The notes beneath the pieces were generated by a model, which saw nothing but the letters and a program-made list of their open reading frames with translations, made no database searches and was not told the origin of the DNA. Shown here piece by piece: positions 15,937 to 37,983 of a stretch of 64,000 bases of DNA; the stretch's first letter is position 1, and the number at the start of each line of letters is the position of its first letter. Source of the stretch: an uncultured delta proteobacterium (GTDB taxonomy: Bacteria; Desulfobacterota; Binatia; UBA9968); contig CAWFJP010000012.1 in assembly GCA_963816145.1 (NCBI GenBank), forward strand, positions 90,979 through 154,978, read 5' to 3'. A program made the translations under genes and the position numbers.

Positions 15937-17061
15937 ATGAACCCATTGAAAGAGCTCGCTGGACAAGGACAATCGATCTGGCTCGATTACATCCGACGCA
16001 ACTTGATTCGCAGCGGCGAGTTAAAGCGCATGGTCGAAGAAGACGGTATCCGCGGCGTCACCAGCAATCCGACCATTTTCGAAAAAGCGATCGCCGGCAG
16101 CACGGACTATGACGAGGCGTTGGGCGCCATGCTGGCGCGCGATGCCAAGGCGCCGGTCGAGCAGCTCTATGAGCCTTTGGCGATCGAAGACATTCAGATG
16201 GCCGCCGATGTCTTGCGCCCGGTCTACGATGCCAGCCATGGCGACGACGGCTATGTGAGCCTGGAGGTGTCGCCTCATTTGGCCCATGACACTCAAAGGT
16301 CAATCAGTGAAGCCAAGCGGCTGCGCGCGGTGGTGGATCGCCCCAACTTGATGGTCAAAGTGCCGGCGACGCCGGCGGGGATTCCAGCGATCGAGCAGTT
16401 GATCGCGGATGGGCTGAACATCAACGTGACGTTGATGTTTTCCATGGCCGATTACGAGGCGGTGGCGCGCGCATATTTAACCGGATTAGAGCGGTGCGCC
16501 GAGCCGTCCAAGGTCGCCTCGGTGGCGTCGTTCTTCGTCAGCCGGGTCGACACCATGGTCGATAAAGAATTAGAAAAAAACGGCACCCCGGAAGCGAGCG
16601 CGCTACTCGGCAAGATCGCCATCGCCAATTCCAAGGTCGTCTACCGCCGCTTCATGGAGATCTTTCGCGGCGAAGGCTTTGCGTCGCTGCGGCAGCGTGG
16701 CGCGCGCGTGCAGCGGCCGCTATGGGCGAGCACCGGCACCAAGAATCCGGCCTACTCCGATGTGCTCTACGTCGAGAATCTGATTGGCCCGGAAACCGTC
16801 AATACGTTACCGCCGGATACCATCAATGCCTTCCGCGATCACGGCAAGATTTCCGGCGCGGTGGTGCAGCAGGGGTTCGCTGAAGCCGATGCGGCGCTGG
16901 CGGCGTTGGCCAAGTTGGGCATCGATCTCGGCGCCATCACGGCAAAATTACAGCAAGACGGCGTGGCGGCATTTGCCGCCTCCTTCGATCAGTTGATGGC
17001 GGCATTGGAGAAAAAACGCCAGGCGATGGTGGATGACGGCGATGTGGTGAAAAAGGGGTAA
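15937..17061 (+). CDS. tal: Transaldolase
   Basis: QSIWLD, GVTSNPTIF, VSLEVSP, KVPAT, RPLWASTGTKNP. Confidence 0.95.
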   Translation: MNPLKELAGQGQSIWLDYIRRNLIRSGELKRMVEEDGIRGVTSNPTIFEKAIAGSTDYDEALGAMLARDAKAPVEQLYEPLAIEDIQMAADVLRPVYDASHGDDGYVSLEVSPHLAHDTQRSISEAKRLRAVVDRPNLMVKVPATPAGIPAIEQLIADGLNINVTLMFSMADYEAVARAYLTGLERCAEPSKVASVASFFVSRVDTMVDKELEKNGTPEASALLGKIAIANSKVVYRRFMEIFRGEGFASLRQRGARVQRPLWASTGTKNPAYSDVLYVENLIGPETVNTLPPDTINAFRDHGKISGAVVQQGFAEADAALAALAKLGIDLGAITAKLQQDGVAAFAASFDQLMAALEKKRQAMVDDGDVVKKG

Positions 17062-18629: not shown

Positions 18630-19150
18630 TCTCCCGCAAAGACGTCAAGCCCGCAAAGGTCGGAGAATTAGGATAAAAATAATTTGTCAGAACTTTTATC
18701 GTTGTCCTCCGAACTTTGCGTCTTAGCGAGAAAAATTTCCGAATCCGAGTTTTTTCAAATTCCATATCAATTGCGCACACACCACAAATTTTGAACGATG
18801 GTAATACAAAGGGGACAAAACGAGATCGGAGAAATTAGCCGCAAAGAATACAAAGATCGCAAGAATGGGATCAGGGAATGTTCCGGGCGCGGCGTGCTGC
18901 GACCACAAGAAAGCTTCGTGACCTTCGTGCCTCCGTTGAAAATACATGTGCAGGTATTATCCGGGCGACGAATTGGCACGAAGGTTCCGTCATACCGGCG
19001 AAAGCCGGTATCCAGGCTTTACTCGGCCTCGCAGAATGAGCGAAGATGGATGCCGGCCTTCGCCGGCATGACGAATCGGGGGGGCGTGCAGGGGGGCTGC
19101 AATTTCATACTCTGTAGACGAGCGAAAGCTCATGGACACTTCGTGGTGAG
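18630..19150. repeat. Cluster of intergenic repeat units, including a GTCAT.CCGGC...GCCGG.ATGAC palindrome at 18988-19073
   Basis: cgtcataccggcgaaagccggtatccagg ... tggatgccggccttcgccggcatgacg, plus 9-nt periodic cgcaaag/ctttgcg arms. Confidence 0.65.
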
Positions 19151-22041: not shown

Positions 22042-23709
22042 ATGACCGCCGAGTTCAGTCCAGACGAACACAAACGCCTTGAGCCTTTTTTTACCAACCT
22101 CGAACGCGACACTTTCGGCCTCAAGCTGCCCCAGGAGGTCGCCGGCGCGTTATTCTCGCGCTACAGCCGCTCGGCCAAGAGTTTGCGCCGGACTTTCCTC
22201 GACGAATTTCTCGGCGATCCCGAGCTCGCCTTGAAAGATTTGCTCGGCGGCCAGCTTCCCGCCGGCGGCGACAGCGCGGCCTTGAAAAAAGCCCGGGCCT
22301 TCTTCGAGCGGGTGCTGGTCGGCTACGGCGACGATTCCGTGGCGCAGTTGGGCGGCGCGCATGTCGCCTGCGAAAATATTTCCAACGTTGCGGCGAAATT
22401 GTTGGAAGACGCGCGCATCGGCATCGCGCCGCTGGAAAAATCGACGCGCTATGTGCGCTTCGATCAGAAGGACGCCGCCGGCGATTATCTGTTTTACCGC
22501 GAGCCCAAGATCATGGCGTCGCGCCACCGTGACACTTATCTCGAAGTGATGAATTTGCTGTTCGAGACCTATTCGAAACAGATGGAGCCGATGCTCGGTC
22601 ATGTCGCCAAGTCGCTGCCCATCGAGCAGTTGGAAGTGCGCGATCCGGTGAGCGGCAAAGGTCTGAGCTACGCCGAGGCGGCCAAGGACGAGCGCTTGAA
22701 GCGCTGGGCCGAGACCGCTTATCGCGCTACGGTGCGGGCGCAGGCCTGTGACGTGCTGCGCAGTTATCTGCCGGCGGCGACTCTGACCAACGTCGGCATG
22801 TTCGGCGCCGGCCAGGCGTTCGAGTATCTAGTCAGCAAATTGTACTCGCACGACCTGAGCGAAGCCCAAGCAATCGGCGCGGCGATTCACGGCGAGCTCA
22901 ATCAGCTCATTCCATCGTTCGTCAAGCGGGCGCAGCGCAACGACTATCTAGTAGCGACCACGGCGGCGGCGAAAGCGCTGGCGGCCCGCGCGACGACGAT
23001 AATACCGGTCGCAACCAACGAACCGGTGACGCTGGTCGATTACGATCCGGATGCGGAAGCGAAAGTCATCGCGGCGATGCTCTACGGCCACGCACGCCAG
23101 CCGCTGGAGCAATTGCGTCAAGTAGCCGCGGCGTTGAGCCAAGCGGAGCGCCGGCAAATTTTCCAAGAATTTTTCTCCAAGCGGCGCCACCGCCGCGATA
23201 GGCTCTCCCGCGCCTTCGAAAACGTCTATTACACCTTCGACATCCTCGGCAATCTCGGCCTCTACCGCGACCTGCACCGCCACCGGATTCTCACCCAGGA
23301 ACGCCAGGATTTTACCACGGTGCACGGCTACGACACGCCGCCGGAAATCGAAGAGGGAGGCTTCAAGAGCGAGTTCGACCGTTGCATGGAGCGCGCGGCG
23401 AAGTTGTGCGAGCAGATCTACGCCGATCTGCCGAGCGAAGCGCAGTACGTCGTGCCGTTCGCCTACAAGATCCGCTGGTACATGAAGCTGAACCTGCGCG
23501 AAGCCCTGCACATGTGCGAGCTCCGCACCATGCCCCAAGGCCATCCCGACTACCGTTTCATCTGCCAGGAGATGTGGCGCAAAATCCAATCCGTCCATCC
23601 GACGCTCGCCGAGTCGGGAAGGTTTATGGACTGGCAGAAGTATCGGTTGGGAAGATTGCAGTCGGAGATGCGGACGGAGTTTAAGAAGTCGGCGATGGAG
23701 AAATCATAG
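22042..23709 (+). CDS. thyX: FAD-dependent thymidylate synthase, long tandem-domain form
   Basis: FSRYSRS, GYGDDSVAQL, EKSTRYV, RDLHRHR, ELRT.PQGHPDYR. Confidence 0.85.
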   Translation: MTAEFSPDEHKRLEPFFTNLERDTFGLKLPQEVAGALFSRYSRSAKSLRRTFLDEFLGDPELALKDLLGGQLPAGGDSAALKKARAFFERVLVGYGDDSVAQLGGAHVACENISNVAAKLLEDARIGIAPLEKSTRYVRFDQKDAAGDYLFYREPKIMASRHRDTYLEVMNLLFETYSKQMEPMLGHVAKSLPIEQLEVRDPVSGKGLSYAEAAKDERLKRWAETAYRATVRAQACDVLRSYLPAATLTNVGMFGAGQAFEYLVSKLYSHDLSEAQAIGAAIHGELNQLIPSFVKRAQRNDYLVATTAAAKALAARATTIIPVATNEPVTLVDYDPDAEAKVIAAMLYGHARQPLEQLRQVAAALSQAERRQIFQEFFSKRRHRRDRLSRAFENVYYTFDILGNLGLYRDLHRHRILTQERQDFTTVHGYDTPPEIEEGGFKSEFDRCMERAAKLCEQIYADLPSEAQYVVPFAYKIRWYMKLNLREALHMCELRTMPQGHPDYRFICQEMWRKIQSVHPTLAESGRFMDWQKYRLGRLQSEMRTEFKKSAMEKS

Positions 23710-23771
23710 GGGGACTGTCGCCGGATGCATTTCGGCCTTGCTAAGTCTTTTTTGCATGATAAAAAAGACTT

Positions 23772-24905
23772 ATGTATCCACGATTGCTCCAGGCACCCCC
23801 CAAGCAAAGCTTTTTCTTGTTCGGTCCTCGTGGGGTCGGTAAGACGGCTTGGCTGCATCAGCAGTTTCCCGGGGCGCTGTTTTTCGACTTGCTCGATCAT
23901 CAAGTTTACACTCAGTTGCTTGCCCGACCCGACCGGCTCGGTGATCAGGTTCCCAAGGCATACAAGGACTGGGTCGTCATAGACGAAATTCAAAGGGTTC
24001 CGGAACTGCTCAATGAGGTGCATCGTCTCATCGAGTCGCGCAAATTACGTTTTGCCCTGAGCGGATCGAGCGCCCGCAAACTGCGACGGCGCGGGGTGAA
24101 CTTGCTGGCCGGCCGAGCGCTCACGCGTCACATGCATCCGTTCACGGCATTGGAACTCGGCAAAGATTTTGATTTGAAACGAACCCTGCAGTACGGCTGT
24201 TTGCCGATGGCATTCACCAGCGACCGGCCGCAAGATTATTTGAAAAGCTACGCCGCGACCTACCTGCGCGAAGAAGTCCAGCAAGAAGGTCTCGCGCGCA
24301 ACATCGGCGCGTTCGGTCGTTTCATCGAGGTCGCGAGCTTTTCCCAAGGCAGCGTCCTCAACATGGCCGCCGTGGCGCGCGAGTGCGCGGTGTCGGCCAA
24401 GGTGGTGGAGGACTATTTCAGCATTCTCGAAGACCTGCTGATCGCCGTGCGTTTGCCGATTTTTTCCAAACGCGCCAAGCGGCGGCTGGTGGCCCACCCG
24501 AAGTTCTACTATTTCGATGCCGGTGTCTTTCAAGCGGTCCGTCCTCGCGGACCGCTCGACGCCCCCGAGCAGATCCACGGACCGGCGTTGGAAACCCTGT
24601 TCTTGCAACAGGCGCGCGCGCTGAACGACTACAAGGACTTGGGCTACCGTTTGCACTATTGGCGCACCGCCGCCGGCGACGAGGTCGATTTCGTTCTATA
24701 CGGAGAGCGCGGTCTGCGTGCTTTCGAGATAAAAATGGCGCACACCGTCCGCTCGGAAGATCTGCGCTCGTTGCTGAGATTCCAGGAGGATTTCCCCGAA
24801 GCTAAAATTCACTTGTTGTATCTCGGCAAACGCCGTTGGCATGATCGAGGCATTGAGATAATTCCTTTCGGGGATTGCATTGGCGAGCTCGACCGATGGC
24901 TGTAA
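23772..24905 (+). CDS. AAA_14 ATPase with DUF4143 nuclease-like C-terminus
   Basis: GPRGVGKT, IDEIQR, SGSS, LAGRA, KFYYFDAG, EVDFV...FEIK. Confidence 0.9.
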   Translation: MYPRLLQAPPKQSFFLFGPRGVGKTAWLHQQFPGALFFDLLDHQVYTQLLARPDRLGDQVPKAYKDWVVIDEIQRVPELLNEVHRLIESRKLRFALSGSSARKLRRRGVNLLAGRALTRHMHPFTALELGKDFDLKRTLQYGCLPMAFTSDRPQDYLKSYAATYLREEVQQEGLARNIGAFGRFIEVASFSQGSVLNMAAVARECAVSAKVVEDYFSILEDLLIAVRLPIFSKRAKRRLVAHPKFYYFDAGVFQAVRPRGPLDAPEQIHGPALETLFLQQARALNDYKDLGYRLHYWRTAAGDEVDFVLYGERGLRAFEIKMAHTVRSEDLRSLLRFQEDFPEAKIHLLYLGKRRWHDRGIEIIPFGDCIGELDRWL

Positions 24906-24940
24906 AGAGAGTTCTTGAAATTGTTGAGAGTCGCGAGCGG

Positions 24941-25076
24941 TGGCGCGAGATTCGATCGAACCATCCAACCCTGTTTGACGGGGGAATTCATGGACTGGCG
25001 GAAGTATCGGTTGGGCAGATTGCAGTCGGAGATGCGGACGGAGTTTAAGAAATCGGCGATGAAAAATACAAATTGA
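24941..25076 (+). repeat. Orphan copy 1 of the thyX 3' end
   Basis: WREIRSNHPTL..FMDWRKYRLGRLQSEMRTEFKKSAM versus thyX WRKIQSVHPTL..FMDWQKYRLGRLQSEMRTEFKKSAM (23575-23709). Confidence 0.92.
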
Positions 25077-25097
25077 GTACATCTAATCACGTCGCTA

Positions 25098-25518
25098 ATG
25101 GTAAAACGATCCATTAAAGTACCCTCGTCTAGCGCTAATTTGCCAGCGGAACCGCAAGGTCCGTTGAGGTGTCTCGCTCTACACACCTTGGGATGGAAAT
25201 CCTTCCAGGATTTATGCGCTCAAATTTGTGAAGAGGTGCTAAAGACGACACTCTCGATTTATAGGGAAGCGCAGGATGGCGGACAGGACGCTGTCTTTCT
25301 CATATCTTCGCTCGATCACGAGGGCAAGAAGAAAACGGAACGTTCCAGTGGAAATTTTGCGATCACGGCGCCGGTTGAAGCAAAGTGATCTTTCCAACGA
25401 AATTGCCACCATCTCCGATTTGTATCAACGGGGGAGGCGCACACTTATTACTCTATTACGAACATGGATGTAGATGCGCCTGTAGAAACCGAAATTCGCG
25501 GGAAGCTTGAAAGCTAGG
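25098..25518 (+). pseudogene. Degraded N-terminal restriction-endonuclease-like domain (type found on STAND/NACHT ATPases)
   Basis: LHTLGWKSFQDLCAQI...DGGQD, then frameshifted Q.KF...LKQSDL; low GC; truncated. Confidence 0.5.
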
Positions 25519-26688
25519 TGAAAAGAGCTGTCGTTGTTGTTCTGCCGATAGATATTTTGGTAGGAAAAGCCGGATCTGATCGAAGATATCGTTCTCTATG
25601 CTCACGAATAGAGGTCCCACAAATTGGAATATAAAGCGTACTTGGACTCTGCGTCCAAGTCTTTCTGATTCTTCAATAGATCGTCGTAAATCCTGTTGAT
25701 CTGTTGAAATAGATCGATGTCGCGAATTTCGAGGGAAATCGCTTGCGATATCGTTCCGGATGTACCACGGAGAACAGTTCGACTGTCTTCAATTAAAATA
25801 GGCAAATGGGAATACTGCGCTATGAGCAATGCAACCGTTAGCGTCGTGGCAACTAGATTAGATGCCGCTGCACGAGCATCATTCACACTTGTTTTTTTAA
25901 ACCGGTCTAGACTACCGTCGGATGTGCAAGATGAGGACCGGATCGACCGTTGCAGAAGGGTGGGCGTAAGCAGGTTGACAGAAGCAATGACTCCTGGAAT
26001 TGCGACGGTACGTTCTTGGTTCTGTAACATGCACGTGAGTAAGTTATGGATTTGATCCAACAATCGCCGACGCCATCCCGTATCGTGGGACATCGTCCGG
26101 ATCAAGTAGAGCTTTAGTCCGATACGCACGTGATGAATCACTCCTCTCAGAGTCTGTTTGTGCAAATCTGGATCAATCCGTGATGCGGTCATAGTTCCGA
26201 TTCGATCAATGACCTACGATATCGCGAATATTAGACACGTCGGATGAGCGAGGGCTAATATCTCTATTTGCCTTCTAAGGGAGCGCGCTTCTGAACTGTT
26301 TTGCGCGAAGTTCTGAAGCAGGCTCCCAATCTTCTAGAGAAAACACAAGTTACATGGAGGTTTATCATGACGCAAAAATCCGCTGTATGCGCTGTCATGC
26401 TCTAGGTCTTGCGAAGAACTCAGACCAATCAGTCGATCGGCTTAGAAGGCAATTTGCGAAAATTTGGACCATTCGTTTCTCGATCAGACAGCATCTTCAC
26501 TTATCACCAACCGGTGTACCTGCGATTCGACGTGTGGACAATTGTAGGTCACTTGCACGGCATCAAAGATTGACAACAAAGCTGAATCTGAATCGGCCGA
26601 AGACAATTTCGACCGTCAGTTCGTTTGTAGCCACTTGAACCCGTTCGTTGGAATGACGGTCAATTCAAATTGCTGATGTAAAAATTGA

Positions 26689-26967
26689 CTAGACGCTATC
26701 GACAAGTTTCAATCTGAAGCTCATTCTCTTGGAACGATGAAAAGGGCAATAATGGCAACTGACGGCTTTATTGATCACGTTGTCGGGGATGCTTGCGATC
26801 GGAAGAGGTTCAGTTTCTGGATATTGCGCTTTCAGTCCGGAATACAATAAGCCAGGAAGCAAATCACCTACTGCTGGAGCTGTGGTTTCGAAACGGATTT
26901 CGAAAATCACCTCAACGAGCGGGCTTTTTCCTAACGCAACCGGCATCTTGGAATCCATTGGTATCAA
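26689..26967 (-). pseudogene. TIGR04255-like protein fragment
   Basis: LGKSPLVEVIFEIRF...LPGLLY N-terminal signature; truncated; low GC. Confidence 0.55.
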
Positions 26968-27105
26968 ATCGCCCTTCTGCTATCTAGGCATCCTTTGTAT
27001 GGGCCATTATACTGTTAATAATTAAGTTCACAAATGTTAGGTCTAATGCAATGACGAGTTGTGATGGTTCCAGCGTGCGCATACGTCGCGAAGATTAGCC
27101 ATCAC

Positions 27106-27350
27106 TCATGATTTTTCATTGAGGATTTGACTCAACAATTTCTCCAGCGGGCGGAGATCTTTTGATTCTTGGGCGTCGCTATCGAAGTATTTGAGATTGT
27201 CGGTGCGCTGCTCTTGCGCGAGTATTATGATCCTTGGGGATATCGGTGCGCCGGGAGTTTTTCGAATCGCCGGGTTGACTCATTCTTTTTGAAGGGCGAT
27301 CTGGCCGTCGCGGGAGAGATACCAATTGATGAACACCTTGGCGGCGGATG
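27106..27350 (-). repeat. Orphan copy of the 3' end of the solute-binding protein gene at 34102-35238
   Basis: AQEQRTDNLKYFDSDAQESKDLRPLEKLLSQILNEKS* versus AQEQRTDHLNYFDSDAPDSKDLRPLEKLLTQILGEKS*. Confidence 0.92.
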
Positions 27351-27486
27351 CCCATGTGTGACGACTCGTCTAAAAGTCCGTAGGTAAATATACATACCCG
27401 ATTGACCGAAACATTCATCGGTGGTATCCGCCTATTGCTCGCGGGGTGAAGTGATCGGTTCGAATATAATCGAAGGATGGTGTCGT

Positions 27487-28473
27487 ATGGTTCGAACGAT
27501 ACTCCTGGTATTAGCTCTTTTGCTTCCCTACTCAGTCAGCGCGGCGACCAAGACTGCGATTCCATTGCGGGTGGCCTACAGTTCGATCTCCGGAGCTGGG
27601 ATCGTTACTTGGATCGCGGCAGATAAGGGATTGTTCGCCAAGCACGGGCTCAATGTCGAGTTGATCTACGTGGCCGGCTCTCAGGCGATGCAATCGCTGC
27701 TCGGTGGCACCACGGTTATGGGGATCCAGGGCATCGAGCCTGTTTTCAGGGTCAACCTTCACGGCTCCGACACGGTGATGATTTTCGGCATCGTGACCAA
27801 GCCGACGTTCTCCATCATTGTGCGGCCGGAGATTAAAGAGTACCGGGAATTGAAGGGCAAGCCGATGGGTGTGACTCGCTACGGCTCGTCCACCGATATG
27901 TTGCTTCGGCTGACTCTCGAAAAGTGGGGTTTCAAACCGGAAATCGATGTTCCGATACTACAAATGGGCGGTGTGCCGCCGATCTTGGCGGGCATGCAAT
28001 CCGGCACAATCTTTGGCGGCCCGTTGTCGCTGCCGACGCTGGCCCGCGCCAAGCAGGAAGGGTACCGCGAATTGGCCGATGTGGCGGACCTGATTCCGGA
28101 TTATCAGGTGGCTGGAATCGTCACACGGCGGTCTTTCATAAAAGAGAACCCCGAGATCGTGCGCGGATTCGTCAGGGCCATGACCGAGGCCATCGCCATG
28201 TTCAAAAACAACCCCGAAGCGGTCAAAGAGGTGATGAAGAATCGGCTCAAGATCGACGACCCGGCGGTGATCGAGGAAACCCAGAAAACCTATCCGAAGT
28301 ACATGCCGAATGTTCCCTACCCAAGCAAAGCGGGCATCACGGTGATCAAGAATTTTCTCGAAAAAACCGAGCCGGCGCTGCGCAAGTTGTCGATCGACGA
28401 TCAGATCGACAATCGGTTCGTGCGGGAAATGGAAGAAAGCGGCTTTCTCCGTGAAGTCAACCGCACTAAGTGA
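27487..28473 (+). CDS. ABC substrate-binding protein, NMT1/SsuA-like
   Basis: Signal peptide; GLFAKHGLNVEL, LKGK.MGVTRYGSSTD, DNRFVREMEESGF. Confidence 0.85.
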   Translation: MVRTILLVLALLLPYSVSAATKTAIPLRVAYSSISGAGIVTWIAADKGLFAKHGLNVELIYVAGSQAMQSLLGGTTVMGIQGIEPVFRVNLHGSDTVMIFGIVTKPTFSIIVRPEIKEYRELKGKPMGVTRYGSSTDMLLRLTLEKWGFKPEIDVPILQMGGVPPILAGMQSGTIFGGPLSLPTLARAKQEGYRELADVADLIPDYQVAGIVTRRSFIKENPEIVRGFVRAMTEAIAMFKNNPEAVKEVMKNRLKIDDPAVIEETQKTYPKYMPNVPYPSKAGITVIKNFLEKTEPALRKLSIDDQIDNRFVREMEESGFLREVNRTK

Positions 28474-28516
28474 CGCTCAATTATATTGGCCCAATATCGG
28501 CGTGAAGCTCGTGCAG

Positions 28517-28697
28517 GAGCTTGGGGCCAGGCCTACTATCGTCGGACCCACTTTGCAATTTATTCTCTGGTTGCGCTGATCGGATCGCTATCCCGCGCGG
28601 GATTATTGCGAGTTAGCGTTGTTTGAATAACTTGTTCATAAAAACTTCGCGCACCAGGCGATCGACGAGGGAGTTGTCGGCGATGGTCTCGACGCCG
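28517..28697 (-). repeat. Orphan copy of the 3' end plus downstream DNA of the solute-binding protein gene at 33085-34077
   Basis: ADNSLVDRLVREVFMNKLFKQR* (stop 28613-28615) versus ADNSILDRLVREGFIDKLFKQR*; flanking non-coding DNA matches about 32969-33085. Confidence 0.88.
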
Positions 28698-28842
28698 CTC
28701 GCCCCGATCGGCTAACAGCGCGTGGTCCCGATGGTGGGTTGGATCCCGACGCCAGGTGCAGACCTATCTCCACCTACATCGCCAGCACCGCAGCGCCTGG
28801 GCGTCCCAGATCGAATTGCGTCCCTGGGTGGAGAAATTTTAG
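28698..28842 (+). repeat. Inverted orphan copy of the 3' end of the SDR gene at 35303-36004
   Basis: RPDRLTARGPDGGLDPDA/QTYLHLHRQHRSAWASQIELRPWVEKF* versus RPERLTERGPDGCLDPDAIAQTYLHLHRQHRSAWASQIELRPWSEKF*. Confidence 0.9.
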
Positions 28843-29073
28843 CGCACCGGCGGTTATTGTGAACCCGTCGCCGGCAGATTGCGTCTAATGGCATGTGTCA
28901 ATGTCGAATCGGCGAGCCCCTCTCGGTTGGGGGCGGGACGTATTGTGGAGGCTGATCGACTGTTTTAGTATGCCAATTTGCATCGTCGTATTAAGGGGCT
29001 TTGAACTTCGGTGCGGATCAATGCCAACGAGAAACGGTCAGTCATGGGCAAATCATCTGATAGAACCAGTCGA

Positions 29074-29961
29074 ATGAAGCTGCGCTCTCTGTTTGTCGTC
29101 TCGGCAATTGCTTTTGCCCTACTTGCTGCCGGTTGTAATCTTATACTGGAACCGATCGAGCAGCGATTCCTGTTTCGGCCTTGGGGCGGGGACCCCATGA
29201 AGCTTGCATCGGTTGCTGCACGCGACAACGGCATCGAGGAAGTTCGGCTGCCGACGGCCGACGGCGTGACGCTGCATGGCTGGCTCAAGCGCCCCAAGGT
29301 GGCGCCGGCAGTTGGACGCTTTCCGCTCGTGATCGTATTCGGCGGCGCGCGCAGGGAAACTTCCTGGATAATGGATCTTGCCGACAAACCCGAGCATTGG
29401 GGCTGGCTATTTATCAATTACCGAGGCTTCGGACTATCGGAAGGCGAACCGTCCGAGCGTATTGTCCTGGCGGATACCCGTCTCATATACGATTACGCCG
29501 CGGCAAGGCCCGACGTAGATGCGACAAATATCGTGGTGCTTGGCCGGAGCCTGGGCACTTATTTCACGGTTGCCTTGGCCCGCAGCCGCGCCTTGCGCGG
29601 CGCGATCCTCGCCACGCCGTTCGATAGCATCGCCGCAGTCGGCGAAGAGCGCTATCCGTGGCTGCCGGTCGGGCTGATTCTTAATGGCCGCTATGACGCG
29701 GCCGCCCTCGCGCCGAAGATCAAAGTTCCCGCGCTGTTTGTCTTAGCCGAAAACGACGACGTGACTCCGGTGGAGAATGGCGCCGCACTCGCGCGCGCCT
29801 GGGGTGGACCGCAAAAAATTCTGACCTTGGCGGGCGCGCGCCACTACGGCATCGAGCGGCGGCCGGAATTCTGGAGCGCAGTGACGGATTTTCTCAGCGC
29901 CATCGAACCGGCCGCTTCGCGCCGCGACGATTACGCCGGACAACTCGGCGCGAAGCCGTAA
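29074..29961 (+). CDS. Alpha/beta hydrolase, probable lipoprotein
   Basis: Lipobox-like LAAGC; NYRGFG.SEG, GRSLG nucleophile elbow, AENDD, ARH. Confidence 0.85.
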   Translation: MKLRSLFVVSAIAFALLAAGCNLILEPIEQRFLFRPWGGDPMKLASVAARDNGIEEVRLPTADGVTLHGWLKRPKVAPAVGRFPLVIVFGGARRETSWIMDLADKPEHWGWLFINYRGFGLSEGEPSERIVLADTRLIYDYAAARPDVDATNIVVLGRSLGTYFTVALARSRALRGAILATPFDSIAAVGEERYPWLPVGLILNGRYDAAALAPKIKVPALFVLAENDDVTPVENGAALARAWGGPQKILTLAGARHYGIERRPEFWSAVTDFLSAIEPAASRRDDYAGQLGAKP

Positions 29962-30012
29962 ACTGCGACCCTTTCGTTCCATGCGTTGCAGCTTTTTTGT
30001 CCACGGCTAAAT

Positions 30013-30225
30013 TTACCGAACAGACCGATAAGTAGTGTATAGTTGTTCAGGCGGCATAACGAACATGTTTTTCGAGAAACAGGTTTTTGATGAGCTGAGT
30101 CTGCATCTGGCGCCGGAACACATGACGGCGCAGCGTGGCCATCATCTCAACCTTGCCGCGCGGACGGCTCTTGCCCAAGGCATGGTTGTTCACATCTTGT
30201 TTGATTAGTTCATCGGGGCGGACGC
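30013..30225 (-). mobile_element. IS630-family transposase C-terminal remnant with right end
   Basis: Minus-strand PDELIKQDVNNHALGKSRPRGKVEMMATLRRHVFRRQMQTQLIKNLFLEKHVRYAA* (stop 30047-30049) resembles IS630 transposase C-termini. Confidence 0.7.
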
Positions 30226-30275
30226 GGGACTGCCAAAACCTGACATCTGGCGTTGCCGCGGAGTGAGATCGAGCG

Positions 30276-32213
30276 ATGCAAAGTGTTTCTCATGACGTAG
30301 TTGGCCTGCCGGCACAACAACAAGCTCTCCAGGCGCGATGCTTCCACCCGACGGAGACGTTTATCGAGTTTAGGAAAGAGGAGATTGACCAGTCCATCCC
30401 GGCGCGCTTCGAAGATCAGGTACGCAAACATTCTCAACGGCTGGCCATCAAGACCAAGGAGATTGCACTCACCTATGATGCGCTGAACAGGGCGGCAAAT
30501 CGCATAGCGCACGCTCTCCTGGCGAGACGTGGAGAGGGACAAGAGCAGGTGGCGATATTCTGTCACCAAGGCGCCGTGGCGATCACCGCGATGCTCGCCG
30601 TGCTGAAAGCGGGCAAAACCTACGTGCCTCTGGATCCCATGGCGCCAAACCCGCGGAATCGGCAAATCCTCGGCGATGCTCAGATCGGACTTATCCTTGC
30701 CGACGCCGAAACTGTTTCACTCGCCGCCGATCTGGCGCAAAACGAGTTCGGCGTGATGAGTATCGCTAGTCTGGAGTCGAGTTTTTCCAGTGACAATCCC
30801 GGGCTCGGTATCTCACCCGATCGTCTTAGCTACATCATGTATACCTCCGGGTCCACAGGCGAACCCAAGGGGGTTATGCAGAATCATCGGAACGTACTCG
30901 ACAAAACCAGGGGATGGGTCAACGTTGTCCACATCTCGCCGGGAGATCGCTTGAGCCTATTGCGATCGCTTGATGTTAGCGGCTCGATCCGAGATCTATT
31001 TGGCGGCTTGCTCTGCGGTGCGACAGTTCTTCCCTTCGACGTGAAGAGGGAGGGACAGATGCATTTAGCCGACTGGTTGGTGGATGAGGAGATCACAATC
31101 TACAATTCGGTGGTAACGCTATTCCGTAACTTGGGCAGCACATTGACCGGTTCTGAGAGTTTTGCCAGCGTTCGCGTGATCAAATTAAGCGGTGAACCGG
31201 TGCGCAAGCGTGACGTCGAAATCTATAAGAAATATTTTCCGTCGCACTGCCTGGCGATCAATATGTTGGCGTCAGCGGAGGTCGGCAGCACCCGAGTCTA
31301 TTTCATCGACAAGGAAACCGCCATTCCCGACACTCTAGTGCCGATAGGTTATCCGTTGGAAGGATGCGAAGTCCTTCTACTCGACAACGATGGCAATAAG
31401 CTCGGCTTCGACGAAGTAGGTGAAATCGCCGTGCGGAGCCGCTACCTATCGCCGGGATACTGGCGCAGGTCAGACCTTACTCAAGCCTGTTTTCTTGCCG
31501 ACCCTGAAGGCGGTGATGCGCGCATCTTTCGCACGGGAGACCTCGGTTCCATGCGTCCGGATGGATGCCTAGTGCACCGGGGACGCAAAGACTTCCACGT
31601 AAAGATCAGAGGATATAGCGTCGAGATCGCCGAGGTTGAAGCGGCGTTGCTCGAACTTGACGCGGTGAAACAAGCCGTGGTCACGACTAGGGCAAACGCC
31701 CAGGGAAACCAAGTTTTGGTAGGTTATGTCGTCCTGACCGGGAAGACTACCCTCACCGTTAGCGCGATCAGGAAAGCTCTGGCCGCAAGGGTACCGGACT
31801 ATATGATCCCTTCGGCCTTTATTTTCTTGGACAGCCTTCCGCTCATCGGCCCCGGAAAAGTGAACGTCCGCGCCCTTCCGGACCCGGGCAAGACGCGCCC
31901 GGACCTCGAAGTGCCCTTTGCCCTGCCGCGCGACCCGGTCGAGGAAAAAATAGTCAAAATCTGGTCCGAGATTCTAGGCTTAAATGAGGTCGGAATTCAC
32001 GACCGTTTCTTAGAACTGGGCGGAGATTCGTTGCTCGCCACAAGGGTAATTTCCCGAATCATTGTCACTTTCCGTTGCGATTTGCCGATGCGAACTTTTT
32101 TCGCGGAACCCACTGTCGCCGCTCTAGCCGCTGTGGTGGCGCGGAACGAAACGAAGCCGTCCACGTCGGAAAAAATCAAGCGCGCGCCGAGGTCGAAGCA
32201 CATTTGGAAATAA
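30276..32213 (+). CDS. Stand-alone NRPS-like adenylation + carrier (A-T) protein
   Basis: YTSGSTGEPKG, FRTGDL, GRKDFHVKIRG, carrier motif FLELGGDSL. Confidence 0.9.
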   Translation: MQSVSHDVVGLPAQQQALQARCFHPTETFIEFRKEEIDQSIPARFEDQVRKHSQRLAIKTKEIALTYDALNRAANRIAHALLARRGEGQEQVAIFCHQGAVAITAMLAVLKAGKTYVPLDPMAPNPRNRQILGDAQIGLILADAETVSLAADLAQNEFGVMSIASLESSFSSDNPGLGISPDRLSYIMYTSGSTGEPKGVMQNHRNVLDKTRGWVNVVHISPGDRLSLLRSLDVSGSIRDLFGGLLCGATVLPFDVKREGQMHLADWLVDEEITIYNSVVTLFRNLGSTLTGSESFASVRVIKLSGEPVRKRDVEIYKKYFPSHCLAINMLASAEVGSTRVYFIDKETAIPDTLVPIGYPLEGCEVLLLDNDGNKLGFDEVGEIAVRSRYLSPGYWRRSDLTQACFLADPEGGDARIFRTGDLGSMRPDGCLVHRGRKDFHVKIRGYSVEIAEVEAALLELDAVKQAVVTTRANAQGNQVLVGYVVLTGKTTLTVSAIRKALAARVPDYMIPSAFIFLDSLPLIGPGKVNVRALPDPGKTRPDLEVPFALPRDPVEEKIVKIWSEILGLNEVGIHDRFLELGGDSLLATRVISRIIVTFRCDLPMRTFFAEPTVAALAAVVARNETKPSTSEKIKRAPRSKHIWK

Positions 32214-32343
32214 AAGCGCCAGTACTTTTGTCTAATGGGGAGAAATGGACATTTCAAACTTATGCGTCGTCCATGGGAATTGCAAAACCGAAACATGGAA
32301 TGAGGGAACGATAAGGAAACTAGGCTCGCGCCGGCCCCCAAGT

Positions 32344-32418
32344 AAGTATCGACTTGGGCGATTATAATCGGAGATGCGGACGGAGTTTAAGAAGTCGGTG
32401 TTGCAAAACATGGAATAG
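32344..32418 (+). repeat. Orphan copy 2 of the thyX 3' end (more degraded)
   Basis: KYRLGRL*SEMRTEFKKSVLQNME*; shares the exact 26-mer TCGGAGATGCGGACGGAGTTTAAGAA with thyX and copy 1. Confidence 0.9.
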
Positions 32419-32585
32419 GCTACTGGAAGACGTGGATTTCGCAGATCGGGTTCAGAGGTGTCAAAAAATGAAGAAGACAAAACGAGAATTTCTCCGGGTA
32501 AATCGGGGGCACTGATAAGTAGCTTATCCGCTGGACAAAGTTATATGACGTATTCGATCGCCTGGGAACTGGCGTATCTGAAGTA

Positions 32586-32786
32586 ATGAAGGATCACGGC
32601 GATTTATTAGATGAGGTTCTTCGAGAAGCGATCTTACAAGACAACATCGTCCAGCTTAATATGAGCCTGCCTCCAGCCATGAAGGCCGTGCTAGGCAAGC
32701 CTGTGCGCCAGCGCACGACGGATGCGACGACCCTTGCTCGCATATGTCTCGCGGAACGATTGGAACGAGAAGTAAAAGCGGGTTGA
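32586..32786 (+). pseudogene. Possible CopG-like antitoxin remnant
   Basis: LNMSLPP..K..L......TDATTLARI.L.ERL resembles ribbon-helix-helix antitoxins; N-terminus appears broken. Confidence 0.35.
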
Positions 32787-32850
32787 TTTGACAAAATGTT
32801 AGCCGTTCCCCGATGCTGCCGCTCTAAAAAATCAATACTCAGGCCTGCCC

Positions 32851-32958
32851 CGGATTTTCTCAACGCCATCGAACCGGCCGCTTCGGGCCGCGACGATTAC
32901 GCCGGGCAACTCGGCACGAAGCCTTAAACTGCGACCCTCTCGTTCCACGCGTTGCGGC
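32851..32958 (+). repeat. Orphan copy of the 3' end plus downstream DNA of the hydrolase gene (29885-29992)
   Basis: About 108 nt direct repeat with about 8 mismatches by eye, spanning the stop codon. Confidence 0.92.
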
Positions 32959-33084
32959 ATTTGGGCGAGAGCTTAGGGTCATGTCTACTTTGGAATTATT
33001 CCCAGGCTTGCTTTCGAACGCGCTTTACTAATTATTCCCTGGGTGCACTGATCCAGTCGCTATCCAGCTTGGGTTTATGGCCGG

Positions 33085-34077
33085 CTAGCGTTGTTTGAAT
33101 AACTTGTCGATAAAACCTTCGCGCACCAGCCGGTCGAGGATCGAGTTGTCGGCGACGGTCTCGACGGCGATCGGCTTTTTGCCCATGAACTCGACGATCG
33201 GTGCGATCGCTTCGGGCTCAACGCGCGGGACGCGCTCCAAGAACTTTACCGAATCGGTGTACAGTTCTTCGATCAAGCGCTGATCTTTGAGGCGGGTGTA
33301 TTTCTCAATCACTTTGAACGCGCGATCTTTCTGGTTGTGCGTTGCGGCGACGCCTTCGAGGTAGGCGCGGGTAAAGGCTTCGGCCAGCTCGGGCGAGCGG
33401 CGCAGGTAGTCGCGCGTCAGGGCGATCACGATGTTGGAGTATTGAATGTCGAGCTCGTTCATGTCGACGAGCATGCGCATCGGCGCGTTGACGCGCAGCG
33501 CGGATATCACCGCGCCGGCAATCTGTTTGAGTTGAAACGCTGCGGCGATTTCTGTGGTGCCGCCGAACTGGCGCACCGTGACCGCGCCGTCGAGTCCCTT
33601 TTTGCGCAACAGCATCCGCGTCATGTTGTCGGTCACCGAGCCGAAGCGCGAAACGCCCAAGGTCTTGCCGCGCAATTGCTCGACGCGGGTGATTTCCGGC
33701 TGCGTCCATAAGCGATAATAGGGCCGATTCACCAGACTCATGATCGCAACCAGCGGCGCTCCGCCCAGCACGGCGGCGATCACCGAGTTGGTCGCGGCAA
33801 ATCCGCCCTGCAAATCGCCGCCGATCAAGGCCTGCACGACGATCGGTCCGGAAGAAATAAAGATCAGATCGGCATCGATGCCGTATTTTTCGAAGGCGCC
33901 GGTCTCCTTGGCCATCCACAGGCCGGTGCCGGCAGGCCCGACGGTGGAATATCCGAGCGTGAATTTCTTGAGATCGGCTGCGGTCGCCCCGTTGCACAAC
34001 CAGAAAATCATTGAAATAACCGTCAACGCTTTTGCAAACGGGCGGCAGATTGCGTTATGAGCGTGCGCAGGTTTCAT
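33085..34077 (-). CDS. ABC substrate-binding protein, NMT1/SsuA-like
   Basis: FEKYGIDADL, LRGKTLGVSRFGSVTD, DNSILDRLVREGF; start uncertain. Confidence 0.85.
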   Translation of the reverse strand: MKPAHAHNAICRPFAKALTVISMIFWLCNGATAADLKKFTLGYSTVGPAGTGLWMAKETGAFEKYGIDADLIFISSGPIVVQALIGGDLQGGFAATNSVIAAVLGGAPLVAIMSLVNRPYYRLWTQPEITRVEQLRGKTLGVSRFGSVTDNMTRMLLRKKGLDGAVTVRQFGGTTEIAAAFQLKQIAGAVISALRVNAPMRMLVDMNELDIQYSNIVIALTRDYLRRSPELAEAFTRAYLEGVAATHNQKDRAFKVIEKYTRLKDQRLIEELYTDSVKFLERVPRVEPEAIAPIVEFMGKKPIAVETVADNSILDRLVREGFIDKLFKQR

Positions 34078-34101
34078 CGGATGGCGCGGTCGGTTCGATG
34101 A

Positions 34102-35238
34102 TTACGATTTCTCGCCGAGAATCTGCGTCAGCAGCTTCTCCAGCGGCCGCAGGTCTTTTGAATCCGGCGCGTCGCTGTCGAAATAGTTCAGATGGTCGGT
34201 GCGCTGCTCTTGCGCCGGGACATGGTCTTTGGGGATATCGAGGCGGCGCGAGTTCTTTGAATCGCCGGGCTGGCTCATTTCTTTTTGAAAAGCGATTTGG
34301 CCTTCGCGCGAAAGATACCAATTAATGAATACTTTGGCGGCGTTGGGATGAGGCGCGCGGTTCATGAGTGCCAGTTGTCCGAACGCGGACGAGATATTGA
34401 TGCCCTCTTTGAAGTGGGTGATGGAAAAATCGGAAATCGGCAGGCCCTGATTCTTGGCCTTGATCACCGCGGAATCCTGGCAGGGGACACAGACCGCGAC
34501 CTTGCCGCTGGCAACCCAGTCGACAGCTTGACGGATTTCACCGGCCATCACCACTTCCATCTCGCTAAAGAGTCGTTGGACAAACTTCACGCCGAGCTCT
34601 TTGTGGTAATAAAGATACTGCCAGGAGGCGCCGGCGCCGCGGACTCTGCGTGGGTCGACGGAGGTGATTTTGCCCTTCAGCTTGGGATTGAGAAGATCCC
34701 AGTAGGATCGGTACTCGGCGGGATTCAATAGTTGGGTGTTATAGGCCGCGTTGCCGCCGCTCGAGACGTTGCCCTCGTAGACGAAGATGTAGCGGCTGTC
34801 CCGGTCGGTGTACTTGTGAGTTTTCTCCCACCACTTGGAGGTGTCGGTAACCTCGGGAAGAATCAGCGCCGGTTTGATCGGATCGAGAAACTTGGCGAGA
34901 TAGAGCGCTTGGTATAGAGAATTGCCGCCGCCGTTATAGACGTCAGCCAGATATTTTTCGCCGCGCCGTTCGGCGGCGATGCGCTGGCTCAAGTCGGTGC
35001 CTGAGCCGCCAATGGTGACCACTTTGATCTTGGGAAAAGCTTTCTGAAAGGCGCCGGACTCGATGACTTTGCTGTAGCCGGAAAAGTACAGGGTAACTTG
35101 CCCCTCGGCTTCCGCCGCTTTGACGGTTTTGTCCCATTCCGCGCGCCAGGCCTCTGCCGCCGGACTCATTTGAGGCGCAAAAAGGATCGCCAGCCAGGTA
35201 ATTACCAAGATTAAAACTCTCGCCGTGTTGTGATTCAT
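34102..35238 (-). CDS. ABC extracellular solute-binding protein
   Basis: Signal peptide; WDKTVKAAEAEG, SYWDLLNPKLKGK, APHPNAAKVFINWYLSREGQ. Confidence 0.85.
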   Translation of the reverse strand: MNHNTARVLILVITWLAILFAPQMSPAAEAWRAEWDKTVKAAEAEGQVTLYFSGYSKVIESGAFQKAFPKIKVVTIGGSGTDLSQRIAAERRGEKYLADVYNGGGNSLYQALYLAKFLDPIKPALILPEVTDTSKWWEKTHKYTDRDSRYIFVYEGNVSSGGNAAYNTQLLNPAEYRSYWDLLNPKLKGKITSVDPRRVRGAGASWQYLYYHKELGVKFVQRLFSEMEVVMAGEIRQAVDWVASGKVAVCVPCQDSAVIKAKNQGLPISDFSITHFKEGINISSAFGQLALMNRAPHPNAAKVFINWYLSREGQIAFQKEMSQPGDSKNSRRLDIPKDHVPAQEQRTDHLNYFDSDAPDSKDLRPLEKLLTQILGEKS

Positions 35239-35302
35239 CCGAATACAAACCCCTGAATGCTGACCTTTTCTACCTGACCGCGCCGTTCCGCCAATTGTTT
35301 TG

Positions 35303-36004
35303 CTAAAACTTTTCCGACCACGGTCGTAACTCAATCTGCGATGCCCATGCGCTGCGGTGCTGGCGGTGCAGGTGGAGATAGGTCTGCGCAATGGCGTCCG
35401 GGTCGAGACAACCGTCGGGGCCGCGTTCGGTGAGTCGTTCCGGGCGCTCCGGGTTGGTGATGCCGCCGTCGATCACCACTTGCGCGACGTGAATATTTCG
35501 CGGCTGCAGCTCGCGCGCCATGCTTTGCACCAGTCCGGTCAAACCCATTTTCCCCATGGCGAATGCCGGAGAGTTGGCGTAGCCTTTGACGCTCGCGGAC
35601 GCGCCGGTGAATAGGATCGTGCCGCTGCCGGCTTTGATCATGCGCTTGGCCGCCTCCTGGCCGATCAGAAAGCCGCCATAACAGGTAATCAAGATCGTCT
35701 GGCGCACGTCTTCGGGGTCGAGATCGGTGACCGGACCGCGGACACGGCCGCTGGCGTTGTAGACGACGAGATTGGGATCGCCGATATCTTGGCTCACCGA
35801 CTGGAATAGCTTTTTCACGTCCGTCGGGCTGCTCGCATCGCAAGCGTAGGCGCGGCCGTCGATTTCTTTGACCAAGCCGTCCAGTTTCTTGACGTTGCGC
35901 GAGGCCATTGCCACCTTCATTCCTTCTTTCTTGAACAGCCTTGCCAACGAAGCGCTCAATCCCGGTCCGCTGCCGACAATCAATGCGATTTCTGGTTGTG
36001 CCAT
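35303..36004 (-). CDS. SDR family oxidoreductase
   Basis: GSGPGLS, VYNA, FTGASAS, QSMAREL, IDG, ELRPW.EKF. Confidence 0.9.
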   Translation of the reverse strand: MAQPEIALIVGSGPGLSASLARLFKKEGMKVAMASRNVKKLDGLVKEIDGRAYACDASSPTDVKKLFQSVSQDIGDPNLVVYNASGRVRGPVTDLDPEDVRQTILITCYGGFLIGQEAAKRMIKAGSGTILFTGASASVKGYANSPAFAMGKMGLTGLVQSMARELQPRNIHVAQVVIDGGITNPERPERLTERGPDGCLDPDAIAQTYLHLHRQHRSAWASQIELRPWSEKF

Positions 36005-36138
36005 GGCGATCCTCCAACGGCGGGATATTAAGATGAACTCGGGCTGTCAATCAAGACAACGAAGTGTCCATGAGCTGACAATCGTCTAAAGAATATGAGA
36101 TTGGCGGGATTTCCCTCCATATACACCTCTCCCCGACT

Positions 36139-36216
36139 CGTCATTCCCGCGCAGGCGGGAATCCAGGTTTTTTCACCGCCGAGTTAGCCTGGATACCCGC
36201 TTTCGCGGGTATGACG
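36139..36216. repeat. REP-like palindrome, GTCATTCCCGCGnAGGCGGGAATCC family
   Basis: cgtcattcccgcgcaggcgggaatccagg ... cctggatacccgctttcgcgggtatgacg. Confidence 0.8.
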
Positions 36217-36279
36217 GAGCTAGGCGGTTTCTTCGATCGGTAAATTTTCTTCGCATGCCTATTTTCGAAGGAGCAATTT

Positions 36280-36422
36280 CATCGAAGACGAACCAAGTGG
36301 ATAACGACGAGCTAGAGCGTATTCTCGCCGAGGCGCGGCAGTTGCAACTGCCGCGGGGAAATCTTTATCGCAATCAAGCATTCAAGAAGGACTGCAATCA
36401 CAACAACAATCCGCATGAAGGC
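36280..36422 (+). pseudogene. Internally deleted, diverged copy of the yajD 5' half
   Basis: ELERILAEARQLQLPRGNLYRNQAFK|KDCNHNNNPHEG versus ELEHILAEARKMRLRRGNIYRDRALK[25 aa]KDRNHDNNPPDG. Confidence 0.8.
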
Positions 36423-37281: not shown

Positions 37282-37456
37282 CTAGTGTCCTGGTCCAGAA
37301 GTTCGCAAAACAGGTCGGACGGCCTGATATCGTCATGGCGGAGAAAGCCGGCATCCAGGTTGGCGATTTTCCTGGATTGCGGGTCGCGCTAGCTATCGCC
37401 AGCTTGCCCGGAATGACGGATGAATTATGTAGCGGACTTTTGGGTCGGCACGCTAG
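37282..37456. mobile_element. MITE-like element with CTAG-bounded imperfect terminal inverted repeats enclosing a REP-like palindrome
   Basis: ctagtgtcctggtccagaagttcgc ... gcggacttttgggtcggcacgctag; internal cgtcatggcg...ggaatgacg at 37331-37418. Confidence 0.55.
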
Positions 37457-37602
37457 GGAGAAAAGGAATTGCGAAATTGGGTCGTGCCGTGCCCCGCATT
37501 TTTTTGTCAGTCTTGCTGTGAGTCGCGCACAAGACTAGACTCCAAATCGATAGACTCTGAATTTCGACTGGTGTGGGTTTCAGAGGGTTGGTTTCGATTC
37601 AC

Positions 37603-37983
37603 ATGACTGCAAAGACGACCCGATCGGAGAGCGGCGAGCTGGAGCACATTCTTGCCGAGGCGCGCAAGATGCGCTTGCGGCGAGGGAATATTTATCGCGA
37701 TCGAGCGCTTAAGATTTTGCCGTGGATTTGCGCCTGGTGCGGGCGGGAATTTAACAGCAAGAAATTGCACGAGCTGACGGTGCACCACAAGGACCGCAAC
37801 CACGACAACAATCCGCCTGACGGCAGCAACTGGGAACTCCTGTGCCTGTACTGCCACGACAGCGAGCACTCACGGTCGCTCGATCGGGAAGCAAGCAGCG
37901 AGACCGTGGTGCATGACGATGAAGACAGTCCGCAGACCTACAATCCTTTCGCCGTCCTAAAAAAACTCAAACCCAAAAAATAG
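37603..37983 (+). CDS. yajD: YajD-family HNH nuclease
   Basis: YRDRALKILPWICAWCGREF, LTVHHKD.NHDNNPPDGSNWELLCLYCHD.EH. Confidence 0.92.
   Translation: MTAKTTRSESGELEHILAEARKMRLRRGNIYRDRALKILPWICAWCGREFNSKKLHELTVHHKDRNHDNNPPDGSNWELLCLYCHDSEHSRSLDREASSETVVHDDEDSPQTYNPFAVLKKLKPKK

Follow-up and report, generated by a model that had tools for sequence, protein, structure and literature searches.

We analysed a 64,000-nucleotide (nt) stretch of DNA from an uncultured delta proteobacterium of the class Binatia (contig CAWFJP010000012.1 of assembly GCA_963816145.1; hereafter the window), in which the gene thyX borders an island that holds orphan gene ends. Between thyX (22042-23709, plus strand), which encodes a 555-residue Thy1-family protein (Pfam Thy1, 1.7e-39) and forms the conserved left flank of the island, and three minus-strand genes for two substrate-binding proteins (SBP1 and SBP2) and a short-chain dehydrogenase/reductase (SDR), lie six diverged copies of the 3' ends of five neighbouring genes, here called relics, with cargo between them. 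We propose, with a confidence that is evenly balanced, that cargo has been added at this site repeatedly by insertion anchored by homology in a conserved gene end, without a dedicated recombinase.

All six copies that the original prediction had described are present, essentially where it had placed them, and were recovered by self-blastn (word size 7) and a repeat search of the window. The E-values of the relic pairs range from 1.6e-9 to 3e-51, and the interval 23400-36100 gives seven self-hits at E ≤ 1e-3 against none in each of 30 dinucleotide shuffles. The last ~140 nt of thyX (23569-23709) are the parent of two relics on the plus strand. The first, T1 (24935-25076), has its own stop codon at 25074-25076 and matches the functional tail at 81% over 134 nt (23569-23702 against 24935-25066), with an 80-nt core that is 93% identical and a longest identical block of 35 nt; the second, T2 (32344-32418), carries an in-frame TAA and a terminal stop at 32416-32418 and is 82% identical to the thyX tail over 65 nt (32344-32408), with a 31-nt identical block. 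The SBP2 relic (27106-27346, minus strand, stop at 27106-27108) is a direct copy of the end of the SBP_bac_1-family gene at 34102-35391 (minus strand; 34106-34342 against 27110-27346, 80% over 238 nt, E 3e-51). The SBP1 relic (28527-28701, minus strand) combines the last 89 nt of the NMT1-family gene at 33085-34077 (minus strand) with sequence from beyond that gene and is likewise direct (33002-33173 against 28527-28701, 79% over 175 nt). Head-to-head with it stands the SDR relic (28700-28843, plus strand), which is inverted with respect to its parent (35303-36004, minus strand; 35302-35446 against 28700-28843, 77% over 145 nt). Finally, the tail of an alpha/beta hydrolase gene (29011-29961, plus strand; Pfam Hydrolase_4) recurs with its immediate downstream sequence at 32851-32962 (plus strand; 29885-29996 against 32851-32962, direct, 92% over 112 nt). 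The family assignments of SBP1, SBP2 and the SDR rest on Pfam matches; the true start of SBP2 probably lies ~50 codons inside the listed open reading frame (ORF), as suggested by a signal-peptide-like stretch.

The finer geometry is less uniform than first supposed. The relics had been described as anchored at stop codons, and similarity does end at or just before the stop for the thyX, SBP2 and SDR copies, whereas in pairwise alignments the SBP1 copy runs ~85 nt and the hydrolase copy 35 nt past the stop of the parent. The intervals between parents and copies had been said to interleave rather than nest, which holds for the thyX copy at 32344 only; the SBP2 interval (27110-34342) contains that of SBP1 (28527-33173), which in turn contains that of the hydrolase (29885-32962). 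Nor are tails strictly the only fragments, as an N-terminal fragment of a TIGR04255-family gene (26692-26979) and a partial copy of an HNH nuclease gene (36285-36422) are also present. At thyX a tails-only pattern is largely forced by geometry, with the 3' end of the gene facing the island. A census of gene fragments in 36 sequences yielded 32 clusters (17 tail, 11 internal and 4 head), among which at least eight tails are those of thyX and at least two entries are artefacts of ORF calling, and it missed the copy at 32344; it does not establish a general tail bias beyond thyX. Outside thyX, we count about six tails against four heads or partial copies in our own reading of the listed fragments, an excess that is not significant. 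We also considered whether tails persist through retention of a terminator and rejected this, as no terminator-like site lies at the relic ends (12 sites against 15.8 expected).

Frameshifts occur in the SBP2, SDR and 24935 copies and may be sequencing indels; the two in the SBP2 relic compensate each other. They carry little weight, because housekeeping genes of the window are frame-split as well: those for a transketolase (13811-15463) and a methyltransferase (6344-7542) are each divided across several overlapping frames. Similar splits affect zwf and thyX in related loci (L002, L009, L019 and L040, in our numbering of loci), and they are probably indel errors of the assemblies.

The cargo begins directly after thyX with a gene for an ATPase with AAA_14 and DUF4143 domains (23772-24905, plus strand; Pfam), a member of the candidate defence family PDC-S01 (PADLOC, 7e-53), with a palindrome with 11-nt arms directly upstream of its start codon. 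Beyond T1 follow ~2 kb of degenerate sequence of low GC content (46%; 25077-27105) with no long ORFs, in which, apart from the TIGR04255 fragment (minus strand; NCBIfam 1.2e-9, positions 4-52 of 252), no Pfam or NCBIfam family was found except for one weak Pfam match (DUF7034, E 0.006). A substrate-binding protein of the NMT1/SsuA family (27421-28473, plus strand; Pfam NMT1 7.9e-21, NCBIfam SsuA_fam below cutoff) separates the SBP2 relic from the SBP1-SDR pair. The hydrolase gene is followed by a stand-alone non-ribosomal peptide synthetase (NRPS) gene that encodes an adenylation domain and a carrier protein (30276-32213, plus strand; Pfam AMP-binding 2.8e-56, and PP-binding). Between T2 and the hydrolase relic lies a small frameshifted gene, gene X (32452-32817, plus strand), which has no Pfam or NCBIfam match and is 80% identical to L003 11966-12326.

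Just upstream of the SDR start, a diverged inverted copy of the zwf-glk intergenic region upstream of glk (18931-19147) occupies 36056-36273 (minus strand); it is 70% identical to the window's own region and 79% to L009 3267-3445, and contains a palindromic hairpin motif that also occurs at 37330-37361. The partial and degenerate HNH copy (75-86% over two blocks) lies 1.3 kb upstream of a YajD-family HNH nuclease gene (37573-37983, NCBIfam 8e-44). A second stand-alone adenylation-carrier (A-PCP) gene, 57% identical in nucleotides to that at 30276-32213, sits beside a minus-strand gene for a TctC binding protein (46367-49293), and A-PCP genes beside orphan binding-protein genes recur in both the window and L019.

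A ThyX scan of species-representative genomes placed the window among the Binatia, with best matches 88-92% identical, and the Binatia genomes are metagenome-assembled genomes (MAGs) variously labelled Binatia, delta proteobacterium or Syntrophobacter. Orthologues in Binatia MAGs show 68-92% identity and share a conserved upstream zwf-glk-SDR block. The ThyX of the window is a 555-residue form with two Thy1 stretches, and the non-Binatia sequences closest to it in the scan come from archaea, namely Nitrosopumilus and DPANN-type MAGs, at 40-48% identity. The order zwf-glk-SDR-thyX is kept across relatives; downstream of thyX the content differs in almost every locus. In tblastx comparisons with L040, L014, L023, L028, L015 and L022, the genes that lie 0-10 kb from thyX in relatives sit at 51-60 kb in the window, where the shared backbone resumes (51060-60409, plus strand) with an AC-AAA_16 STAND gene, an NMT1 substrate-binding protein, an Amidohydro_2 gene and a thiamine pyrophosphate enzyme (Pfam); the AC-AAA_16-TPR gene of the window is 96% identical in amino acids to that of L040. 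Because the genes next to thyX in relatives return only there, the variable island is ~27 kb long from the thyX stop codon, and the interval studied here is its first 12 kb. No tRNA or tmRNA gene was found in the 64-kb window, and we therefore rejected tRNA-linked integration.

The site had been predicted to be a recurrent hotspot, and this was borne out. For each locus we compared the last 300 nt of thyX with its own downstream DNA by blastn, in a set of 27 Binatia-like loci, each with 1 kb or more of sequence after thyX, and 40 loci from other taxa. Relics of the thyX tail lie downstream of thyX in 12 of the 27 and in none of the 40; the survey itself gave 11, to which L028, with two relics, was added from separate alignments. 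Eight loci are robust (the window, L003, L011, L017, L019, L022, L026 and L028), and in four the relics are short or weak (L004, L014, L015 and L029). Relic-bearing contigs can be long (1.5 Mb for L003, 170 kb for L028 and 43 kb for L019). Direct repeats of the 3' end of the target thus flank units in the window and 11 further loci, and an intact anchor gene is accompanied by diverged copies of its 3' end, as in arrays built by homology-facilitated insertion.

A common crossover boundary, the mark of integrase elements, does not emerge from these relics. Their right edges fall between -24 and +12 relative to the stop codon, and there are at least 10 different left edges, at -59, -71, -96, -131, -140, -154, -168, -184, -218 and -277 nt from the stop. 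Even the three relics that follow the AAA cassette start at -140, -131 and -218, so that no boundary is shared within one cassette family. Nor do third positions in the conserved thyX core give any sign of a universal attachment (att) core at the DNA level (0.62 against 0.67 elsewhere), in what is a weak test with 5 of 24 sequences misframed. Many cargo blocks in relatives abut without a relic, as in L013, in L040 and at the junction between CBASS and 2-Hacid_dh genes in L028, so that tail scars arise as by-products of certain events and are not obligatory joints. In L013, the functional thyX end (11453-11658) consists of two overlapping pieces with a short repeat of RLG codons, which could be a scar without cargo or an indel error.

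The architecture also has parallels away from thyX. In L019, an NRPS gene stands between a relic of a substrate-binding protein gene and such a gene; this A-PCP gene, different from that of the window, lies between tail relic and intact gene just as there. The order ADH-TctC-relic in L002 is possibly another such case. An SDR orthologue (93% identical in amino acids) sits in the thyX-downstream island of L013, and the SDR relic of the window is 93% identical in amino acids to the tail of the L013 gene.

Much of the cargo in the window is metabolic (binding proteins, hydrolase and NRPS), and defence genes recur at the hotspot. The AAA_14-DUF4143 gene and the thyX relic that follows it are also found in L003 (78% nucleotide identity) and L017 (75%), with a fragment in L019. 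Other relic-bracketed cargo comprises the YhcG nuclease of the candidate defence family PDC-S02 in L019, an ABC-type ATPase in L026, an ArsR-like regulator and a MazE-like gene in L028, and HigB/HTH, MazF and Phd-type toxin-antitoxin genes in relatives. Between two thyX relics of L028 (13294-17341) lies a CBASS-like set of E2, cyclase, patatin phospholipase and M78/capP-like genes, and elsewhere the hotspot holds PD-Lambda-2_B in L013 and a mad3/AriA-like ATPase in L026. PADLOC matches at the hotspot thus include PDC-S01, PDC-S02, a CBASS cyclase, E2 and phospholipase, PD-Lambda-2_B and mad3/AriA-like genes. A conserved flank, variable downstream content and defence genes are what characterises a defence island or integration hotspot.

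The absence of a visible integrase, remarked on in the original prediction, extends to the whole 64-kb window, where Pfam scans of two sets of ORFs (48 and 38) detected no domain of an integrase, transposase or resolvase. Likewise, no recombinase domain was found in 364 ORFs (62 + 83 + 116 + 103) of 29 related loci, of which the last two scans covered 219 of 239 stop-to-stop ORFs of at least 60 residues, the other 20 repeating ORFs already scanned. A tyrosine or serine recombinase gene within the element or array, as integrase elements carry, was thus found neither in the window nor in these relatives. Nor does the interval qualify as an integron, as the window has no integrase domain and the repeats are copies of gene ends; attC sites were not searched for with a dedicated model.

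Differences between relics and parents, counted by the Nei-Gojobori method as synonymous (Sd) and nonsynonymous (Nd) differences and as the ratio of their proportions per site (pN/pS), bear on the claim that the tails are orthologous ends that diverged under selection. The bias towards synonymous change is clear for the SDR (Sd 23.5, Nd 7.5, pN/pS 0.10), which is the pair that contains the synonymous codon example quoted in support of the claim, and for SBP2 (Sd 32.5, Nd 14.5, pN/pS 0.12). It is also seen between the thyX end and T1 (Sd 11.5, Nd 14.5, pN/pS 0.32 overall and 0.23 in the core) and between the thyX end and T2 (Sd 6.7, Nd 7.3, pN/pS 0.31). In contrast, the hydrolase pair shows no such bias (2 synonymous and 4 nonsynonymous differences, pN/pS 0.66), and neither does the SBP1 pair (3 synonymous and 9 nonsynonymous differences, pN/pS 0.91); these two relic families are uninformative or neutral as to selection. 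Because their differences are mainly synonymous, the SDR, SBP2 and thyX relics must once have belonged to functioning genes in lineages that had diverged. The pN/pS values of 0.10-0.32 and synonymous divergence (dS) of up to more than 1 rule out, for these three families, a local duplication that then decayed neutrally.

Comparison of relatives reveals sites in both empty and occupied states. L009 reads thyX-W where L003 reads thyX, a block of small genes that includes gene X, relic, AAA and relic, and then W; L031 reads thyX-Z where L011 has thyX, 5 kb of cargo, a relic and Z. L017 (thyX-AAA-relic) and L014 (thyX-STAND-weak relic) both run into the same Amidohydro_2 gene (87% nucleotide identity). 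In L011, the relic and the sequence downstream of it (15795-16431) are 92% identical to L031 11507-12141, whereas thyX and the 5 kb upstream are 76% identical, so that a sharp step in ancestry, and with it a recombination breakpoint, lies exactly at the left edge of the L011 relic. Mosaic ancestry, as expected of homology-facilitated arrays, is therefore found both in the comparison of L011 with L031 and in the low pN/pS of three relic families. Cassette order is not fixed: gene X lies between thyX and a relic in L003 and after relic T2 in the window, and X precedes AAA in the former and follows it in the latter.

The direction first envisaged for these events was not supported by the data. 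Incoming DNA had been supposed to supply a new gene tail and leave the old one behind, a view that comparison did not bear out: identity to the tails of the five nearest relatives is 86-95% for functional thyX tails against 77-88% for the relics, so that the working end has the appearance of native sequence and the relics that of older or foreign DNA, and the piece of L011 that stands out, being discordant and recently shared, is the relic block. Nearest-neighbour comparison of the relics with 29 functional tails dealt with sequences too short to place donors. More than one order of events fits the history of the window, also when the inversion between the SDR repeats is undone.

The relics, their recurrence, the selection signature, the mosaic ancestry and the failure to find integrase domains are observations; from them we infer the recombination pathway and the order of events. 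In the insertion anchored by homology that we propose, DNA from the island of a related lineage would recombine through the conserved last 60-280 nt of a gene that borders the island, either thyX or, earlier or in the donor, the hydrolase, SBP1, SBP2 or SDR gene. The other end would join without matching homology, by homology-facilitated illegitimate recombination or by a single crossover of a circularised piece. The bordering gene would stay intact, a second and diverged copy of its end would remain between successive cargo blocks, and relics inside imported blocks would travel along with them. We propose that the relics of five genes are intermixed because imported blocks carry earlier relics. 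No recombinase encoded by the element would take part. We favour homology-anchored insertion because no recombinase was found, the left edges vary, several genes are involved, ancestry is mosaic and some joints lack repeats.

Several observations weigh against this proposal, and the tight 3' anchoring of the relics is its chief weakness: all begin no more than 280 nt from the stop codon and end near it, as is typical of site-specific elements, whereas random illegitimate joins should also yield longer relics. A conserved core of thyX (peptide RLGRLQSEMRTEFKK) is retained in most relics. Divergence of the AAA cassette tracks that of thyX (86% against 89% amino acid identity for L003, and 83.5% against 80% for L017), so this cassette may be vertically inherited rather than mobile. 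A relic can be either the truncated edge of an imported block or a displaced resident end, and both fit. Finally, all the genomes compared are MAGs.

The strongest rival, which we consider unlikely but serious, is that the 3' end of thyX serves as the target of site-specific elements that bring a replacement for it, so that they accrete in tandem with an integrase that acts in trans or has been lost; left behind would be satellites without an integrase, together with att-like repeats. One and the same gene end is struck in 12 of 27 loci, the relics are stop-anchored and mostly share one conserved core, and the compact cassettes with defence and toxin-antitoxin cargo are typical of integrative islands. 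Precedent comes from the tycheposon preprint (10.1101/2020.12.28.424599), parts of which describe new elements pushing older ones inward and scattering partial copies of the target. However, not one integrase or recombinase domain turned up in ~450 ORFs of the window and 29 loci, and there are at least 10 different left edges. Five relic fragments (in L019, L022, L014, L015 and L029) lack the conserved core altogether, and the core shows no extra third-position conservation in the weak test given above. Moreover, relics of four other genes would each require a system of their own, and cargo joints in L013, L040 and L028 have no repeat. If the rival were nevertheless true, an unseen integrase family would act in trans on thyX.

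An extension of homology-anchored insertion, which we offer tentatively and think doubtful, is that the thyX-tail repeats are working parts of a recombinase-free cassette system, in which paired arms would allow RecA-dependent insertion into related genomes with a single thyX end. Such insertion would never break the essential thyX gene, and a block could also loop out as a circle and re-insert; possible helpers are PD-(D/E)XK proteins encoded by the cassettes, if they cut thyX ends that are unoccupied. Were this so, the conserved end of a housekeeping gene would do the work of an attachment site throughout an entire class of bacteria.

Decidedly less probable is that no special mechanism is at work and that deletion, inversion and replacement of the usual kind, in an island with rapid turnover, left the relics as debris, part of it from a second SDR-SBP2-SBP1 cluster that has since decayed; tails would then persist because 3' pieces without a promoter are harmless. 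Fragments other than tails fit this explanation, namely the TIGR04255 head, the partial HNH copy and, in relatives, the head of an AAA gene (L019) and a duplicated head (L027), and the back-to-back SBP1 and SDR relics at 28700/28701 are what one deletion across two divergent genes would be expected to leave; the SBP1 and hydrolase relics, in addition, carry no selection signature. In contrast, a decayed second copy of the cluster would have left the SBP2, SBP1 and SDR relics in another order and orientation, and dS above 1 with pN/pS near 0.1 excludes local duplication followed by neutral decay. Debris would also not explain why direct repeats bracketing cargo recur at thyX in many genomes and are absent from 40 control loci, or why every relic lies within 280 nt of a stop codon.

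For single-gene cassettes only, a homing-like process can be imagined, in which thyX ends without a cassette are cut by a PD-(D/E)XK-type protein that the cassette encodes (AAA_14-DUF4143 or, in L019, YhcG) and repair then copies the cassette, the homology arms being the relic on one side and the functional tail on the other. DUF4143 is listed in a table of a PD-(D/E)XK superfamily survey, the PDDEXK protein YhcG occupies the same position in L019, and the AAA gene lies between copies of the thyX end in three genomes. We nevertheless hold this to be very unlikely: a nuclease gene is missing from most cassettes, the two proteins themselves fall into candidate defence families, the cleavage specificity is purely hypothetical and AAA divergence parallels that of thyX. 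A chimeric assembly of co-existing strains, which the MAG origin of all records, the frame-split housekeeping genes of the window and the low coverage of the L011 contig (by its name) might suggest, has almost no chance of being the explanation, as an assembler would switch haplotypes at exact repeats, whereas the relics are truncated and match their parents at 70-95%, and the same architecture appears in independent assemblies on contigs of 0.17-1.5 Mb.

In a non-exhaustive search of the literature we found no description of thyX-end repeats or of such a pattern in Binatia. The closest known arrangements are arrays of integrative and conjugative elements and cis-mobilizable elements (ICE/CIME) and the tycheposon islands of Prochlorococcus, which accrete in tandem at the 3' end of a gene or tRNA (10.1101/2020.12.28.424599). 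As far as the accounts consulted describe them, these share with the thyX locus the repeated use of one gene end, partial target copies that part cargo blocks, older blocks pushed inward, adaptive or defensive cargo and some units without mobility genes. Unlike them, the target here is the protein gene thyX, neither an integrase nor a fragment of one was found in the window and 29 loci, the repeats begin at widely differing left edges, and the ends of other genes occur among them. The compact units, mostly of one or a few genes, that follow in a row from a fixed point, each with a repeated recombination-prone segment after it, also recall integron arrays; however, no IntI-type integrase was found in the window, and the repeats are copies of a host gene end rather than attC hairpins.

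As to mechanism, the nearest parallel is offered by polymorphic-toxin loci, namely the orphan Rhs and contact-dependent inhibition (CDI) tips and the effector-immunity arrays of the Vibrio cholerae type VI secretion system, for which sections of PMC5361080 describe sequential displacement of 3' ends and propose homology-facilitated illegitimate recombination without a dedicated recombinase. There, too, the 5' part is constant, upstream homology anchors incoming modules and old 3' pieces shift downstream. What varies in those loci, according to the same sections, is the 3' end of the gene itself, which serves as the payload, and the orphans retain an immunity function, whereas at thyX the end belongs to a conserved housekeeping gene, the payload follows the stop codon and the relics appear functionless.

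Finally, the thyX locus resembles the defence hotspots of Escherichia coli (hotspot #37) and Pseudomonas aeruginosa, where, as passages of PMC10121019 relate, a fixed position by a conserved gene is occupied by very different defence systems from one genome to the next, and genes of mobile elements are often absent. How defence and accessory genes arrive at such hotspots without mobility genes is there an open question. The hotspot passages of that paper mention no duplicated ends of flanking genes, whereas at thyX the scars trace the addition of blocks and are legible as diverged copies of the flanking end between blocks, recurrence across the class, empty and occupied states, and a step in divergence. 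If homology-anchored insertion is the correct reading, it would be a testable route of additive gene gain that needs host recombination only, and stop-anchored diverged repeats of flanking genes would be a signature that can be searched for in any pangenome.

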